Shown one piece after another: positions 3,581-20,154 of a stretch of 37,717 bases of DNA. A program made the position numbers and the translations under genes. Location: contig JAHFLV010000006.1 of NCBI GenBank assembly GCA_023264565.1, forward strand, positions 1-37,717, read 5' to 3'. Position 1 is the stretch's first letter, and each line of letters opens with the position of its first letter. This stretch comes from Candidatus Zambryskiibacteriota bacterium. GTDB lineage: Bacteria > Patescibacteriota > Minisyncoccia > Phycocordibacterales > DATGWK01. The notes below the pieces were generated by a model. That model searched no databases. It was not told the DNA's origin and saw only the letters and a list, made by a program, of their open reading frames with translations.

Positions 3581-3937
3581 TTATTTCTTAGCGCCGCCAG
3601 TTTTAGCGTCAGCAGCAGCTTTTGCAGCCTGAGCAGAAGCGATTTCAGATTCTTTCGCCTTTGTTTCCATTTCTTTCTGCATCTTTCCTCCGTGTCGGAT
3701 GAATTTACGAGTCAAAGAAAATTCACCAAGTCGGTGACCAACCATGTCTTCGGTAACAAGCACTGGAACGTGTTCGCGACCGTTGTGAACACCAAAAGTG
3801 AAACCAACCATTTCTGGTGCGATTTGGCTGTCTCGAGCCCACGTCTTAATAACTCCTGCTTCACTGGTTTTCTTTCCAGCGATTTTCAAGAGAAGTTTTT
3901 CGTAGACGTATGGTCCTTTTTTGGTCGATCGTGTCAT
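3581..3937 (-). CDS. rpsS: 30S ribosomal protein S19
   Basis: [11 protein letters not shown]...[24 protein letters not shown] is canonical S19. ATG at 3937; there is a ~35-aa Ala/Lys-rich C-terminal extension. Confidence 0.93.
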
Positions 3938-4006
3938 TTTAAAATTTATTTGATTGTGCCGCGATGGGCGTTTCGGAGTTGTCTTTTGCAGGGCGCTTTT
4001 TATTAA

Positions 4007-4038
4007 ACAAAAAACCTGCCCCACTCCTCGAAGGCAGG
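4007..4038 (-). terminator. Terminator-like hairpin inside the rpsS leader (candidate attenuator)
   Basis: CCTGCC/GGCAGG stem, 12-nt loop, followed by TTTTTTG on the minus strand. Lies between the promoter at 4087-4114 and the rpsS ATG at 3937. Confidence 0.4.
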
Positions 4039-4086
4039 CCCGAACTGCTGGTAAAGCAATGTGGGCGCGCTAATTGCGTAGGGAGA

Positions 4087-4114
4087 ATAGTAGCAGAAGA
4101 TGAAAAAGAGTCAA
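4087..4114 (-). promoter_or_regulatory. Sigma70-like promoter upstream of rpsS
   Basis: Minus strand reads TTGACT-16 nt-TACTAT with the CTTCTGC block abutting the -10. Confidence 0.6.
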
Positions 4115-4152
4115 GAATTTGGCCTCCATTCCCTTCTTATAATTTAGTAGGC

Positions 4153-4179
4153 AAACAAAAAGCGTCCAAAATGGACGCT
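4153..4179 (-). terminator. Intrinsic terminator of the 57-aa peptide gene
   Basis: AGCGTCCA/TGGACGCT 8-bp perfect stem, 3-nt loop, TTTTTG tail on the minus strand, 25 nt after the stop. Confidence 0.75.
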
Positions 4180-4203
4180 GTGTGGAACAAAAGAACCTGT
4201 AGA

Positions 4204-4377
4204 TCACTTACTGAACTTGGCGTGGAAGTAGGCCTGAACGAAAGCCGGATACCAGTCGGGAGGTGCCAGGACGACGTAGGCCAACAGAAGTATGCTTGTA
4301 AATGCAATGGCCGCACCAACCAGAAACCCCCGACGAATCCCCGAGTCTTCCTTCTTTGGGTCATATCCCCTTGCCAT
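4204..4377 (-). CDS. 57-aa single-pass membrane peptide (hypothetical)
   Basis: ATG at 4377 is preceded by AGGAG 9 nt upstream. One hydrophobic helix (FLVGAAIAFTSILLLAYVVLA). It has its own TTGACT-16-TATAAT promoter and its own 8-bp hairpin terminator. Confidence 0.6.
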   Translation of the reverse strand: MARGYDPKKEDSGIRRGFLVGAAIAFTSILLLAYVVLAPPDWYPAFVQAYFHAKFSK

Positions 4378-4446
4378 GGACAGAATCTCCTTACTATCTT
4401 TGGTCAGAGTGTTACACCCAGGCACAAGCCACAGGTTTCTAGCATC

Positions 4447-4474
4447 ATTATACACTTATAAAAGTAAAAGTCAA
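4447..4474 (-). promoter_or_regulatory. Promoter of the 57-aa peptide gene
   Basis: Minus strand reads TTGACT-16 nt-TATAAT (consensus -10), about 65 nt upstream of the ATG at 4377. Confidence 0.65.
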
Positions 4475-4499
4475 TAGTTCCTGAAAGTTGATCTTCCAA

Positions 4500-4523
4500 C
4501 AAAAAAGCCTCATTTCTGAGGCT
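4500..4523 (-). terminator. Intrinsic terminator after rplB
   Basis: AGCCTCA/TGAGGCT 7-bp stem, TTTC/GAAA loop, U6 on the minus strand, about 30 nt after the rplB stop. Confidence 0.7.
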
Positions 4524-4551
4524 TTTTTGTTCACTTTTTCGTGAGGAGATT

Positions 4552-5403
4552 TTATTGTTCTTTGCCTTTCTTTCCGACTCGGCGTCTTGAAACAATGAAG
4601 ACGTTTGAGTATTTCTTTGGAGTTCGGCTCTTCTGACCCTTTCCTGTTGGGCGGCCAGTTCGAGTCATCGCTCGTCGGCGACCTCGGCCTTGTCGGCCTT
4701 CGCCTCCACCGTGCGGATGATCGACTGGGTTCATAGCAGTACCTCGGACAGTCGGACGAATACCCAACCATCGGCTGCGACCTGCTTTTCCAAGCTGAAC
4801 GAGTCGGTTTTCGTCGTTTGAAACTTCACCAATTGAAGCCCATGCGAGTTCTGAAACTTTTCGAACTTCAGTTGAAGGAAGTTTGACGTGAGCAAAACCT
4901 GAATCTTTTGCAATGATTTCTGCAAAGTTACCTGCTGAACGAGCCATTTTGGCACCGGAACCCGCTTTGAACTCTACGTTGTATATAAATGTTCCCAATG
5001 GAATGTCTTTGATTGGAAGACGATTTCCTGGAGTGATCGGAGCGTTTTCTGCAGCAAGGATTTCTTGGCCAGGTCGAACGTTCTTTGGGAGAAGGATGTA
5101 TCGCTTTTCGCCGTCTTTGTAGTTTACGAGACCAATGAAACCCGTTCGATTTGGATCGTATTCAACGGTTTTAACAACACCAGGAACGCCGATTTTATCC
5201 ATTCGAAAATCGATTTCTCGGAAGAGTCGTTTGTGACCACCTCCCTTATGATTCATGGTGATTCGGCCGAAATTGTTGCGACCCATCGGACGTCGGAAAC
5301 CATGAGTAAGTTTCTTATGAGGTTCGTTGGTAGTGATCACTGCTCGGTAAGAGACAGTAGTCATATTTCGGCGTGATTTTGTTGTTGGTCGATAGCGTTT
5401 CAT
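4552..5403 (-). CDS. rplB: 50S ribosomal protein L2
   Basis: 283 aa; GRNNFGRITMNHKGGGHKR and MNPVDHPHGGGEGR signatures of L2. Confidence 0.96.
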   Translation of the reverse strand: MKRYRPTTKSRRNMTTVSYRAVITTNEPHKKLTHGFRRPMGRNNFGRITMNHKGGGHKRLFREIDFRMDKIGVPGVVKTVEYDPNRTGFIGLVNYKDGEKRYILLPKNVRPGQEILAAENAPITPGNRLPIKDIPLGTFIYNVEFKAGSGAKMARSAGNFAEIIAKDSGFAHVKLPSTEVRKVSELAWASIGEVSNDENRLVQLGKAGRSRWLGIRPTVRGTAMNPVDHPHGGGEGRQGRGRRRAMTRTGRPTGKGQKSRTPKKYSNVFIVSRRRVGKKGKEQ

Positions 5404-10811: not shown

Positions 10812-11351
10812 TCAAACGCACTCTCCATTCTTAACCAAATAAAAAACCCGCCTGGAGGCGGGGTGCTTTAAAGCACATGTTTCACATTCGATCAGGGTAA
10901 CACACCGTCTGGCACACAACTCGAGATCAGCATCCGCCGAACTGAGACAGTCCCCTAATTTCTGAGGATCGTCTTCGTAGATTTCTCGACAATCACACTG
11001 CCTATGGCGCCATGCATTGAGGGAGGTAATGAGGTCGGCCACGTACCGCGTACGAACGTCGTCGACACAGTCTGGATTCAGATGGTGCTTCGGTGCCTTA
11101 CAGGGAATATCGACCAACGCGTACGAAAGCCATTCCATGAACTTGGGATACGTCACCGGGTCATCATCGCAATAAAGCGTCGGCTCCATGAGCGAAACAG
11201 CATATTCAAAGAGCGCAGACTCAGAAACGAAGTGCGCCCCAACTGTCGGTGGTGGGGTGATGATCTGGGCCAAGGATTTTTGTCCTGGGAACAAGACCAT
11301 CGAGGCCGCAATCACACAAGCAAAAAACACGGGGCTTAACTTCTGACGCAT
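10812..11351 (-). CDS. Secreted Cys-rich protein, family member 2 (hypothetical)
   Basis: ATG at 11351 preceded by AGGAGTTTGTG (same RBS context as member 1). Signal peptide ends SLA|QII. Conserved DDP, DCV and CxC (CDC) positions shared with member 1. Own promoter. Confidence 0.7.
   Translation of the reverse strand: MRQKLSPVFFACVIAASMVLFPGQKSLAQIITPPPTVGAHFVSESALFEYAVSLMEPTLYCDDDPVTYPKFMEWLSYALVDIPCKAPKHHLNPDCVDDVRTRYVADLITSLNAWRHRQCDCREIYEDDPQKLGDCLSSADADLELCARRCVTLIECETCALKHPASRRVFYLVKNGECV
10838..10863 (-). terminator. Intrinsic-terminator hairpin lying inside the last ~17 codons of Cys-rich gene 2
   Basis: CCCGCC/GGCGGG 6-bp stem, 4-nt loop, TTTTTTATTT on the minus strand. The ORF stop is only reached at 10812. 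Confidence 0.6.
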
Positions 11352-11418
11352 CACAAACTCCTATAAATGTACCCCCAACAAGGAGGCGTTACGAAAGAAC
11401 AAAAAACACAGACTGAAA

Positions 11419-13727: not shown

Positions 13728-13828
13728 AAGAAAACCGCTTTTCAGATGAGCGCGATAAGTCCTGCTGGACTTTCGCTACTCTCGGCGCCTTCGCGCCTCC
13801 GGAAACTCATCTTCAAAGCAGTTTTCTT
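13728..13828 (-). promoter_or_regulatory. About 100-nt Y-shaped structured RNA element in the rpsG-fusA spacer
   Basis: A 23-nt outer stem (21 pairs plus a tandem G-A/A-G mismatch) encloses two GC-rich hairpins (GGCGC-GAAG-GCGCC; GCGAAAGUCC-AGCA-GGACUU(A)UCGC). No U-run follows. It ends about 33 nt before the fusA ATG. Confidence 0.55.
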
Positions 13829-18390: not shown

Positions 18391-19332
18391 TCACCAGAAC
18401 CAGCCCATGAGCCCATATCCCACCTCATCACACCAGTCGTTGAGAGTTTTCTGTGGACTGGCGCCGGGGTTGATAGGATCGAGCGGCCACTTGAAGAAGG
18501 GCGGCACCTCGGGAAACACGGTGATGTTGTATATCCGTGTCCGGTCACCATCGCCGGAGATTGTTGTATCCCAACGTTCGGGAAGAAAGGTGTCAGTGTT
18601 GATGTAGAGATACTGAGAGACAGCGTCGCCGCCCGCTCGAATAAAACTGACATCGAACACATAGCACCCATGACCGCGCAAAGCTGCACGCCGCTCCTCG
18701 ACGGGGTTACGAACTCCTCCGGTGATCTTCTCTAAGAACACTTCCACCATGTCCGTGCTCGACTTGTATGCGGGCACATTTGCTGAAGGCTCTCCGAGCC
18801 AACTCAGTGTCAGCGTCGAGAGCGAGCAGTCCAATTCTGAACTGCCATGGAAGCTATACGGGCCGAATGACGTGTCGCTTTTGTAGTAATAGAACTTGCC
18901 GTTGTCCGCAGAACGATACTCGGACACATCACCGTCCATACCACCAACAAGCGAAATGGCCATGATGAGTTTGTCGCCTTCGTAGACCCGAGAATGCATC
19001 ATGCCTGGTGCCATGTAGCAAACTGACTTGATCGTCACGGGCTCCTCGAAAGTCCTCCAGCCGTCCCTCAAGCCGGGAAAACCGGACGTGATAACAGACT
19101 CGAGCTTGAGAAACTTGATCCCCGAACGGAGCTTATCCCGAACGCGATCTGCGATATCAGTGTTCGAGAGCTCCTTTGAGGCTTCTGTCTTGGGAACCAG
19201 ATCGGTCTTTTCCGATTTCTCTGGATTTGCCATCACCACGGGATTGGGTTCAAATCGAGCCACCACGAGCGACTCACCCGTCTGCTTTGGGACCACACAG
19301 AACATCAAAACAAATGCGATGAAGAACTTCAT
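18391..19332 (-). CDS. Secreted 313-aa protein (hypothetical), GC-rich island
   Basis: Signal peptide MKFFIAFVLMFCVV. GAAGGGAG RBS. TTGACA-17-TACTTT promoter and a 7-bp GC hairpin terminator. No family recognised. Confidence 0.65.
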   Translation of the reverse strand: MKFFIAFVLMFCVVPKQTGESLVVARFEPNPVVMANPEKSEKTDLVPKTEASKELSNTDIADRVRDKLRSGIKFLKLESVITSGFPGLRDGWRTFEEPVTIKSVCYMAPGMMHSRVYEGDKLIMAISLVGGMDGDVSEYRSADNGKFYYYKSDTSFGPYSFHGSSELDCSLSTLTLSWLGEPSANVPAYKSSTDMVEVFLEKITGGVRNPVEERRAALRGHGCYVFDVSFIRAGGDAVSQYLYINTDTFLPERWDTTISGDGDRTRIYNITVFPEVPPFFKWPLDPINPGASPQKTLNDWCDEVGYGLMGWFW

Positions 19333-19482: not shown

Positions 19483-20154
19483 TCACTTCATGACGACGAG
19501 TGGCGCCTGTCCCGCGTCGCGCACGATCTTGTTCTGACAGGTGGCGGAGTACGAGCTGTTTTCGTTCTGCTTACAGCTCTTCTGATCTTCACAGTCGCGC
19601 GGACTGCAGGACCTCACATCCACTGACATGTGGGTTCGAATGCACTTGCATTCCGTACCCATCACCTTCCCTGTGTCCACGTTGATAAGCAGGTGAATGG
19701 GGTCGGTGCCGTCCAGGTTCGCATTGTCGATCGTCAGACCAGTGTTGCCCGAAATGCCGAAGTTGAAGACCATCACCTCGCCGGTGGTGGGGCTCATGCC
19801 AACGTAGGAAATGTTCGTATCGGTGTAGCTGGACAGGTCGCTCGTCTCGAGCAACTCGCCGTTCACGAAGACGTACAGGGTGCCGTCGGACCAGTAGTGA
19901 TCCACGTAGTTACCGTGGAAATTGCCGCTGTGAATCCAGGGACCCTCGGTTGTACGAGCGTCGAGCATCTGACTGACCGTGACCCCGGGGATTGCCGGCA
20001 AATCCGGAACCGCCGTCGCTGTGGACTTCATGCTGACCGTCGGCCCGTTGATCGGGGTGACGATCTGGGCCGAAGTCTGTCGGCCGAAAACCGCCGTAAC
20101 CAAAACCGCAATCATGAAAGACGCCAAGGACTGCAAACTGATACGCTTCTTCAT
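19483..20154 (-). CDS. Secreted 223-aa protein with Cys-rich C-terminus (hypothetical), GC-rich island
   Basis: GGAGG RBS. Signal peptide ends TSA|QIVTP, like the two fusA-tuf island paralogues. Beta-rich middle region. C-terminal CKC plus four further Cys. Hairpin terminator. Confidence 0.6.
   Translation of the reverse strand: MKKRISLQSLASFMIAVLVTAVFGRQTSAQIVTPINGPTVSMKSTATAVPDLPAIPGVTVSQMLDARTTEGPWIHSGNFHGNYVDHYWSDGTLYVFVNGELLETSDLSSYTDTNISYVGMSPTTGEVMVFNFGISGNTGLTIDNANLDGTDPIHLLINVDTGKVMGTECKCIRTHMSVDVRSCSPRDCEDQKSCKQNENSSYSATCQNKIVRDAGQAPLVVMK

Follow-up and report, generated by a model that had tools for sequence, protein, structure and literature searches.

A putative horizontally acquired mini-gene for a membrane peptide in an old gap between rplB and rpsS of a Patescibacteria genome

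The gap between the ribosomal protein genes rplB and rpsS in the genome of a Candidatus Zambryskiibacteriota bacterium appears to be an old boundary between two transcription units that lodges a small, horizontally acquired, moron-like accessory gene, a reading to which we assign a probability of about 0.65. Throughout the order, the S10 cluster stops at a terminator behind rplB and resumes at a dedicated extended -10 promoter and a leader hairpin before rpsS, and the DNA between these elements would be free to vary and act as a hotspot for accessory cargo. In the present genome, this slot carries about 380 nt of strain-specific DNA as a stand-alone, moron-like unit consisting of a near-consensus promoter, a leader of about 63 nt, a 57-codon open reading frame (ORF) for a membrane peptide and a terminator of its own. 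The ORF would most likely have been acquired horizontally, from an unknown pool shared with the genome's other GC-rich genes for exported or membrane proteins that are preceded by a Shine-Dalgarno (SD) box. All coordinates refer to the window, i.e. the whole stretch of 37,717 nt that was analysed.

The rplB-rpsS boundary

Both genes that flank the gap lie on the minus strand. The gene rplB (uL2; 4552-5403, 283 aa), which carries the Pfam domains Ribosomal_L2_N and L2_C at 4555-5403 (E = 1e-29 and 5e-49) and shares 86-90% identity with its orthologues in the same genus, is the closing gene of the upstream transcription unit. The downstream unit is opened by rpsS (uS19; 3581-3937, 118 aa), which matches Ribosomal_S19 at 3584-3937 (E = 9e-32); its product has a tail rich in Lys and Ala, and orthologues were found in 38 of 41 relatives. 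These Pfam calls and coordinates agree with the gap of 614 nt (3938-4551) described in the first-pass annotation, and a consensus scan recovered the order of elements reported there, namely a terminator for rplB, a promoter, the 57-codon ORF, a second terminator and a promoter for rpsS.

The same annotation held that the cassette had cut the S10 operon in two. When rplB-rpsS synteny was compared among relatives, as it had suggested, separation of the two genes proved to be common throughout the order. The distance between them in 34 same-order genomes has a minimum of 79 nt and a median of about 650 nt; it is at least 300 nt in 22 of these genomes and amounts to 11-44 kb in four, whereas the median in 98 other Patescibacteria is about 21 nt and a gap of at least 300 nt occurs in only one of them. 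Named GTDB contigs gave a median L2-S19 gap of 840 nt at an S19 identity of at least 70%, where 14 more loci had no L2 within 2.5 kb, and of 73 nt at an identity below 70%.

The promoter of rpsS, TTGACT-16-(TG)C-TACTAT (4087-4114, minus strand), was detected in the scan with a 9/12 match and a TG-extended -10 element. The first-pass description of a new promoter for rpsS was right about the promoter but not about its age, as it is ancestral and conserved across the order: 28-30 of 30 relatives have a promoter at the corresponding place, where the block TCTGnTAnnAT is conserved, and the succession of promoter, hairpin and U-run 5' of rpsS is present in 27 of the 30, compared with 32% of shuffled leaders. 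Because the break, the extended -10 promoter and the leader hairpin are order-wide, they predate the cassette. A recent insertion that broke a continuous rplB-rpsS operon and brought or forced a new rpsS promoter, which was the first-pass model, would be in line with the spacing of the two genes within about 60 nt in most bacteria and in 83 of the 98 other Patescibacteria sampled. It is scarcely credible, however, given that the promoter, its TG-extended -10 and the leader hairpin occur in 27-30 of 30 relatives that all lack the cassette, that gaps in the order are nowhere shorter than 79 nt, and that the conserved part of the gap begins exactly at the rpsS promoter. The cassette thus did not cut the operon, and these comparisons show the break with its dedicated promoter and leader to be a derived, order-wide trait and not a local accident.

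An RNAalifold alignment of eight family members showed three stems in the rpsS leader RNA (4002-4086, minus strand): CGC/GCG, GCCC/GGGC around GCUUUACCAGC, and CCUGCC/GGCAGG, with the end UUUUUUGUUU. The last stem shows C-G to U-A covariation among the eight members. Within this leader lies a third terminator-like hairpin of the gap (4012-4041, minus strand), which had been overlooked in the first pass. A covariance model of the leader (R1) matched the genome once (96 bits). In this search, the long form with three stems was confined to the genus and family, with only weak terminator-like matches elsewhere; the short leader hairpin with its U-run is present order-wide. In Rfam, no family matched the leader at gathering score, and the terminator-type matches at E values up to 10 were at chance level. 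A conserved structure that closes in a hairpin and a U-run thus lies between a promoter and an r-protein gene, and it resembles an attenuator or a 5' stabiliser. The hairpin of most relatives stands at the extreme 5' end of the transcript, a position that suits a stabiliser equally well as an attenuator.

The content of the slot varies. Seven genomes of the same genus have differing inserts or none between rplB and rpsS, and the cargo of relatives includes SocA_Panacea, Clp_N, pilin N_methyl, nucleotidyltransferase and orphan membrane proteins; in the relative G002, the slot holds a toxin-antitoxin-like pair (SocA/Panacea). The flanking core genes are thus constant while the content differs among close relatives, as in a gene-transfer hotspot. 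Since the old boundary gathers changing cargo, the position of the cassette is ordinary, and only its homologue-less peptide is new.

A strain-specific cassette with its own promoter and terminator

The limits of the insert were set by comparing the gap with the loci of 30 relatives by blastn and tblastx. Only gap positions 1-55 (the rplB terminator) and 427-552 (the rpsS promoter and leader) aligned; the DNA between them, at approximately 4118-4497 on the minus strand, has no DNA or protein counterpart in the relatives, and the cassette spacer is carried by none of the 30. The restriction of the tblastx matches to these two segments also ruled out a remnant of a larger cargo gene of a relative. 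A second copy or genomic repeat was excluded because the cassette is single-copy in the genome, and a duplicated rplB terminator because the rplB and cassette terminators are unrelated. A search for a direct repeat or other insertion scar, and for a donor or mobile-element gene, found none for the cassette. An opposite-strand ORF of 165 aa (3964-4461, plus strand) was rejected, as it has no family match and crosses three hairpins and two promoters. By eye, this ORF resembles an antisense ORF of G002 (KKPA-LLEGRP motif), the shared part being the conserved rpsS leader read backwards.

The promoter of the cassette, TTGACT-16-TATAAT (4447-4474, minus strand), matches the consensus at 11 of 12 positions in the scan and is near-consensus, as had been claimed. 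Only 15 sites of at least 11/12 exist in the 580-kb genome, and 14 of these lie outside ORFs of at least 100 aa, against a background in which such ORFs occupy 83% of the genome. Transcription would start near 4440, giving an unstructured leader of about 63 nt. The cassette ends in an intrinsic terminator (4152-4179, minus strand) whose hairpin at 4161-4179 has an 8-bp GC-rich stem AGCGUCCA/UGGACGCU and a 3-nt loop, followed by UUUUUGUUU; this tail motif is the same as in the other terminators of the host. On its upstream side lies the rplB terminator (4498-4531, minus strand, consensus scan), a GC-cored hairpin between an A-run and a U-run, which would therefore be usable in both directions. 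An equivalent hairpin stands directly 3' of rplB in two relatives (G004 and G006). The scan hence agrees with the earlier description of an 8-bp hairpin terminator behind the ORF and of a self-contained unit of promoter, ORF and terminator within the gap.

The rare, mostly intergenic class of its promoter and the flanking terminators suggest that the cassette is likely to be a real transcription unit. Its promoter and terminators are host-type in look, which fits a very recent arrival less well. The transcript of about 292 nt folds no more stably than its shuffles (z = -0.7) and matched no Rfam family; it therefore shows no sign of structured RNA, and that candidate was dismissed.

The 57-codon ORF and its peptide

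The ORF MARGYDPKKEDSGIRRGFLVGAAIAFTSILLLAYVVLAPPDWYPAFVQAYFHAKFSK occupies 4204-4377 on the minus strand, with the ATG at 4377 and the stop at 4204-4206, and encodes 57 aa. The single transmembrane helix attributed to it in the first pass was confirmed: its basic N-terminus is followed by one membrane helix, and the C-terminal helix is aromatic and amphipathic. The AlphaFold model, calculated from the single sequence, has a helix at residues 7-37, which contains FLVGAAIAFTSILLLAYVVLA, a kink at PPDW and a second helix at 42-55, with a mean pLDDT of 77. The N-terminus is probably inside and the C-terminus outside. A version of 83 aa from a GTG at 4455 was ruled out because this codon, immediately 5' of the -10 box, precedes the predicted start of transcription.

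Dinucleotide shuffles of the transcript yielded an ATG ORF of at least 57 aa in 6.8% of cases, but 0 of 3000 yielded one with an equally hydrophobic 19-mer. In codon score, the sense frame is the best of its six frames. These results, together with the helix-kink-helix model and the lack of any sign of structured RNA, make it likely that the ORF is coding. Among host coding windows, its codon score ranks at the 2.3rd percentile, which is atypical for the host. Furthermore, the region upstream of the ORF is rich in G, whereas host genes have initiation regions that are A/U-rich and depleted of G, so that translation of the ORF may be inefficient.

The cassette could also be transcribed and untranslated: it would either encode a small RNA (about 285 nt) peculiar to this strain or be decaying imported DNA, with the frame as a functionless leftover. 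This would account for an SD box that the host cannot use, for the low codon percentile, for the orphan status of the ORF in all databases searched and for the frequency of ORFs of at least 57 codons in the shuffled transcripts. We nevertheless consider it rather unlikely: the frame is intact, its ATG-to-stop stretch occupies the interval between promoter and terminator, no shuffle matched its hydrophobicity, the sense frame ranks first of six, and neither the RNA fold nor Rfam points to an RNA product. We infer that the cassette is transcribed and that translation of the ORF, like that of host genes, proceeds without SD pairing.

Peptide homology had been proposed as a check, and no homologue was found in any database searched. 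Six-frame searches of 40 relatives and 400 same-order genomes, a word search of 5.8 billion clusters and back-translated patterns run against JGI metagenome contigs, GTDB genome contigs and IMG/VR all gave no homologue; an exact 29-mer of the ORF had no match in metagenome contigs, and the peptide had none in Pfam, NCBIfam, PHROGs, PADLOC or PDB. An exhaustive phmmer search of 1.84 billion representatives yielded nothing but two artefacts from tandem repeats, and one of the two was inspected. Pfam gave a single line, LRR19-TM, whose 16.7 bits fall short of the cut-off of 27 and are explained by the composition of the membrane helix. Because homologues are absent, selection on the peptide cannot be demonstrated. 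The absence of a homologue in relatives and databases also makes it unlikely that the peptide is an unannotated subunit of a membrane complex, as the first pass had suggested.

A type I toxin-antitoxin module would share several of these traits. The peptide would be a membrane-depolarising toxin, and an antisense RNA that starts near 4405 on the plus strand and stops at the bidirectional rplB terminator would base-pair with the leader of the toxin mRNA. The peptide is shorter than 60 aa and has a single membrane helix and a strong promoter, both strands of the hairpin at 4498-4531 carry T-runs, and the corresponding slot of G002 houses the SocA/Panacea pair. The search for an antisense RNA proposed earlier gave a single candidate, a promoter-like site on the plus strand (4371-4400, TTGCCA-18-TATCTT, 9/12), but such sites are at chance level, with 4 found and 3.3 expected in 3 kb. 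The module is also made improbable by the lack of a toxin-family match in Pfam, NCBIfam and PADLOC and of any match in PDB, by the single copy of the cassette, by a predicted mRNA fold that leaves the ribosome-binding region unsequestered, and by the absence of homologues to show a conserved pair. In our preferred reading, the peptide would sit in the membrane and serve as an accessory factor of the envelope.

An SD-like box in a lineage without an anti-SD sequence

An SD-like box, AAGGAG (4387-4392, minus strand), is found 9 nt before the ATG. The first-pass annotation took AGGAG for a ribosome-binding site; the box is present, but it is not a working one, having no anti-SD partner in the 16S rRNA of the lineage. 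The host 16S rRNA ends in GGAAUAUUUCAA, without CCUCC, and its 3' tail reads GGAAUAUUUCAAUU where the Rfam model shows GGAUCACCUCCUUU. The tail is identical in the 24 relatives whose 16S 3' ends were readable. Because this end lacks CCUCC, AGGAG cannot serve as a Shine-Dalgarno site. SD sequences are not enriched at host starts (5.9% vs 7.6% at random positions). With no anti-SD in the 16S rRNA, arguments from a "good RBS" fail in this lineage.

The composition of the ORF sets it apart from host coding windows, with a GC content of 54.4% compared to 44% and a GC3 of 61% compared to 41%, each within the top 2%. An SD box stands before 7 of 12 GC-rich ORFs and before 13 of 318 others (Fisher p = 6.5e-7, odds ratio 33). 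By these measures, the ORF belongs to a small class of GC-rich ORFs with SD-like boxes. Its high GC content and the SD box in front of it, which is unreadable for the host ribosome, make it compositionally foreign, and the AAGGAG box is read as a mark of foreign origin.

Discussion

For the finding in its original form the consequence is small, namely one more orphan mini-gene with the essential operon undisrupted. SD-like boxes in this genome flag a small, GC-rich and probably imported class of genes, and they offer a simple sequence flag for foreign cargo in such reduced genomes. If expressed, the peptide becomes a candidate factor of the cell envelope, in a bacterium whose lifestyle is probably one of attachment to other cells. 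A further reading, which we regard as a long shot, joins these observations: a mobile pool of GC-rich, SD-boxed genes for membrane and exported proteins would circulate among CPR bacteria that lack an anti-SD. The GGAG box, unable to recruit ribosomes in such hosts, might then be a handle for a trans-acting regulator, e.g. a small RNA with a C-rich loop, which would gate expression of the foreign cargo, and the peptide would be a membrane-active effector or toxin at the cell-host interface.

Set beside known systems, our preferred reading of a horizontally acquired accessory gene at an old boundary shares features with several of them. With type I toxins (Hok, TisB, Fst, TxpA) the cassette has in common that its peptide is small, hydrophobic and single-helical, that its promoter is strong and that an antisense transcript may overlap it, but it differs in having no family match, no convincing antisense promoter and no RBS-sequestering fold, and in being single-copy. 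Lineage-specific small membrane proteins are encoded by ORFs of fewer than 60 codons and have one membrane helix, as in the E. coli small-protein set. The peptide resembles them in its length, its single helix, its basic N-terminus, which obeys the positive-inside rule, and the omission of its ORF by gene callers; it differs in being without any homologue, in that its translation is predicted, and in that its host has no SD-led initiation.

The E. coli S10 leader is controlled by L4 through attenuation, and Rfam holds r-protein leaders. Unlike these, the rpsS leader matches no Rfam family, and feedback by an r-protein is putative; like them, it places a promoter and then a conserved hairpin with a U-run before an r-protein operon. 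Oliveira, Touchon, Cury & Rocha are said to have described, in 2017, core-gene-flanked hotspots of horizontal gene transfer. The rplB-rpsS slot differs from these in being very small (hundreds of nt to a few kb), in lying inside the normally invariant S10 cluster and in having no integrase or mobile-element gene. It shares with them conserved flanks, rplB and rpsS, around content that is wholly different even within the genus, and a compositionally deviant cargo.

Phage morons are stand-alone promoter-gene-terminator units between genes of an operon-like cluster. The cassette is outside any prophage, flanked by rplB and rpsS with no phage genes, and the PHROGs and IMG/VR searches were negative, so that it would be moron-like in its working and a member of no phage family. 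It nonetheless has, as morons do, a strong promoter and a terminator of its own around one small accessory gene, a composition that deviates from its neighbours (GC 54%, GC3 61%), and a co-directional position between two genes that are adjacent elsewhere.

Signals in the rplB–rpsS gap

The genes for L2 (rplB, ending at 4552) and S19 (rpsS, starting at 3937) lie on the minus strand, were both confirmed by Pfam and are separated by exactly the 614 nt that the first-pass annotation had claimed. The signals it had listed in this gap were all recovered, the promoters and hairpins by a consensus scan. On the minus strand, these are an rplB terminator hairpin (4498-4531), a near-consensus promoter (TTGACT-16-TATAAT, 4474-4447, 11/12 matches), an ORF for the same 57-aa peptide (4377-4204) with an SD-like AAGGAG 9 nt upstream of its ATG at 4377, a perfect 8-bp terminator hairpin followed by UUUUUGUUU (4179-4161), and an rpsS promoter with a TG extended -10 element (TTGACT-16-TACTAT, 4114-4087). 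The scan also detected a third terminator-like hairpin at 4041-4012 (minus strand), which was absent from that list. We refer to the promoter, the 57-codon ORF and its terminator as the cassette. No tRNA gene was found in the window, and Rfam gave no match there at the gathering score; matches with E values up to 10 were chance matches of the terminator type only.

On the plus strand, a 165-aa antisense ORF (3964-4461) spans the whole gap, crossing three hairpins and two promoters. It has no family match, and the sole motif that it shares, by eye, with an antisense ORF of G002, a genome of the same genus, overlies the rpsS leader. This ORF is most probably spurious as a gene.

The rplB–rpsS break across relatives

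The cassette had been read as cutting the S10 operon in two, and the rpsS promoter as new. Neither reading survived the comparison of rplB–rpsS synteny, which showed wide gaps throughout the order of Patescibacteria that includes the source genome. We located L2 and S19 in 40 relatives. Where both genes lie on one contig within the order (n = 34), the gap is never below 79 nt, with a median of about 650 nt; it is at least 300 nt in 22 of these genomes and 11-44 kb in four (G019:C1, G024:C2, G026:C3 and G028:C1, given as genome and contig). The corresponding values for 98 other Patescibacteria are a minimum of about 0 nt and a median of about 21 nt, with 83 gaps of at most 61 nt and one of at least 300 nt. 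In four genomes from other orders of the same class, the gap is 15-45 nt. The four relatives with gaps of 11-44 kb, among which G026 also has the relative order of rplB and rpsS inverted, indicate that the S10 cluster can split fully into its two halves in this order, and further same-order genomes carry L2 and S19 on separate contigs. In a second sample, consisting of named GTDB contigs split by S19 identity at 70%, the median gap was 840 nt at or above this threshold (n = 19), with 14 more loci lacking L2 within 2.5 kb, and 73 nt below it (n = 40).

Upstream of rpsS, almost all of 30 relatives have a strong promoter in which a TCTGnTAnnAT block is conserved. This block is the extended -10 (TGn) element of the order's rpsS promoters (4087-4114 in the window and the equivalent sites in loci L010-L038), which explains the 'CTTCTGC-TACYAT' block first noted in three promoters of the window. 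Downstream of the promoter, a hairpin with a U-run is present in 27 of the 30 relatives, compared with 32% of shuffled leaders. From these comparisons, we conclude that the rpsS promoter is ancestral and that the rplB–rpsS break is derived, a trait of the whole order.

The rpsS leader RNA

In the family to which the window belongs, the rpsS leader has three stems in 85 nt, with a final hairpin followed by UUUUUUGUUU. A covariance model built on it has a single match in the genome, at 4002-4086 on the minus strand (96 bits). A C-G pair of the last stem is replaced by U-A in three of the eight aligned sequences (alignment A1), and the leader corresponds to no Rfam family. Elsewhere in the order the model gives weak matches only, and the long form is restricted to the genus and family. 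In genomes beyond the family, the hairpin often takes the form AAGCUC-loop-GAGCUU and begins 6-9 nt past the -10 box, at the transcript's 5' end; a short hairpin and U-run located right at the start of the rpsS transcript is found order-wide. The leader may act as an attenuator, or it may instead be a 5' stabiliser.

A variable slot between two transcription units

Comparison of the gap with the relatives' loci by blastn and tblastx gave matches only at gap positions 1-55 (rplB terminator) and 427-552 (rpsS promoter and leader). The strain-specific part, at about 4118-4497, comprises the cassette promoter, ORF and terminator. The same slot in relatives holds different cargo. G002 carries a SocA/Panacea-domain protein (Pfam E 5e-19) and a 146-aa partner ORF that overlaps it (locus L012, 369-1200 nt upstream of rpsS); the two are probably a toxin-antitoxin pair. 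Other genomes have a 242-aa orphan with membrane helices (G001), a 235-aa orphan with an N-terminal membrane helix (G015), a Clp_N protein (G021), a prepilin-type protein together with a GIY-YIG-like ORF seen by eye only (G022), a lipoprotein-like ORF (G017) and a nucleotidyltransferase on the opposite strand (G011). Three relatives contain a GC-rich palindromic element whose core is GCGAAAnnCCAGnAGGnnTTA, at about 1250-1340 of L014 (G004), at about 270-360 of L013 (G006) and upstream of rpsS in L016 (G009). By eye it resembles a Y-shaped element at window 13728-13828, and blastn detected no link between the two at E ≤ 1.

Two transcription units meet in the gap, one ended by the rplB terminator and the next started by the rpsS promoter and leader, and the DNA between these signals varies freely in the order. 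Here it is a unit of promoter, ORF and terminator whose composition is foreign to the host. The ORF has a GC content of 54.4% and a GC3 of 61%, compared with averages of 44% and 41% for host coding windows, and each value is within the top 2% of these windows. Its codon log-odds score is at their 2.3rd percentile, and the sense frame scores best among its own six frames. Searches for a donor of the cassette and for an insertion scar found neither.

SD-like boxes in a host without an anti-SD

The AGGAG had been annotated as a ribosome-binding site; the box is present, but a Shine-Dalgarno role for it is contradicted by the host. An SD 4-mer at -20 to -4 precedes 5.9% of 236 confident starts, compared with 7.6% of random positions, and initiation regions are rich in A/U, G making up about 10%. 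The 16S rRNA 3' tail (contig C7:294-345, locus L039, outside the window) reads GGAAUAUUUCAAUU, compared with GGAUCACCUCCUUU in the Rfam model. This tail does not contain CCUCC, and the 16S rRNA therefore has no anti-SD; all 24 readable 16S 3' ends of relatives have closely similar tails without CCUCC. No gene for ribosomal protein uL1 (PF00687) was detected in the genome, whose completeness is 92%. The genome does not use Shine-Dalgarno sequences, and it matches a Parcubacteria subgroup without both uL1 and anti-SD (Tsurumaki et al. 2022, PMC9297842). The trait itself is thus already known and not new.

SD-like boxes are at chance level overall in this genome. Among 330 ORFs of at least 100 aa with confident starts, 12 have a GC content of at least 50%, and a GGAG/GAGG box at -20 to -4 precedes 7 of these 12, compared with 13 of the other 318 (Fisher p = 6.5e-7, odds ratio 33). 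Several of the seven encode signal peptides. Examples of these GC-rich, boxed ORFs are found on the minus strand of the window (18391-19332, 19483-20154 and 10812-11354) and on contigs C37, C21, C40 and C47 outside it. A class of GC-rich, SD-boxed genes, partly bearing signal peptides, thus exists in a host without an anti-SD, and the 57-aa ORF is consistent with membership of it. Import from donors that use SD sequences is the simplest explanation. As for the affiliation of the genome, the absence of uL1 and of an anti-SD calls a "Saccharibacteria" label into question; its closest named records comprise both "uncultured Ca. Saccharibacteria" MAGs and Nomura-, Kaiser- and Zambryskibacteria or Paceibacterota.

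The cassette gene and its possible role

The cassette promoter is one of 15 sites in the 580-kb genome that match the sigma-70 consensus at 11/12 or better. Fourteen of them fall outside ORFs of at least 100 aa, which cover 83% of the genome, and such matches therefore behave as real promoters here. In 3000 dinucleotide shuffles of the approximately 292-nt promoter-to-terminator stretch, an ATG ORF of at least 57 codons arose in 6.8%, and in no case did it include a 19-residue window as hydrophobic as that of the peptide. From the single sequence, AlphaFold predicts a helix at residues 7-37 (pLDDT up to 94), then a break at PPDW followed by a second helix at 42-55. The basic N-terminus (R3, K8, K9, R15 and R16) suggests, by the positive-inside rule, an N-in, C-out topology.

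A homology search, which the first-pass annotation had proposed, was run and returned no homologue of the peptide from any database: 400 same-order genomes in six frames, JGI metagenome contigs, GTDB genome contigs, IMG/VR, a 5.8-billion-cluster index, Pfam, NCBIfam, PHROGs, PADLOC and PDB. Exhaustive phmmer against 1.84 billion representatives likewise found none, returning two repeat artefacts.

A type I toxin is a weak candidate for the role of the peptide. For an antisense RNA, a search for which was also proposed earlier, the consensus scan gave a sole promoter-like site (4371-4400, 9/12) at chance level, and no toxin family matches the peptide. The cassette mRNA does not hide its start region: predicted folding is at the level of shuffled sequences (z = -0.7) and leaves the AAGGAG box unpaired. 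We regard the 57-aa ORF as an orphan mini-gene of ordinary type, lodged in a hotspot of a kind already known. Such a gene would be transcribed from about 4440 to about 4155 and would be translated without SD pairing, like host genes, albeit from an atypical G-rich leader; its product would enter the membrane as a single-pass protein and might serve as an envelope accessory factor. As a unit of promoter, ORF and terminator, the cassette is organised like a phage moron, although it differs from a moron in its location, which is not in a phage.
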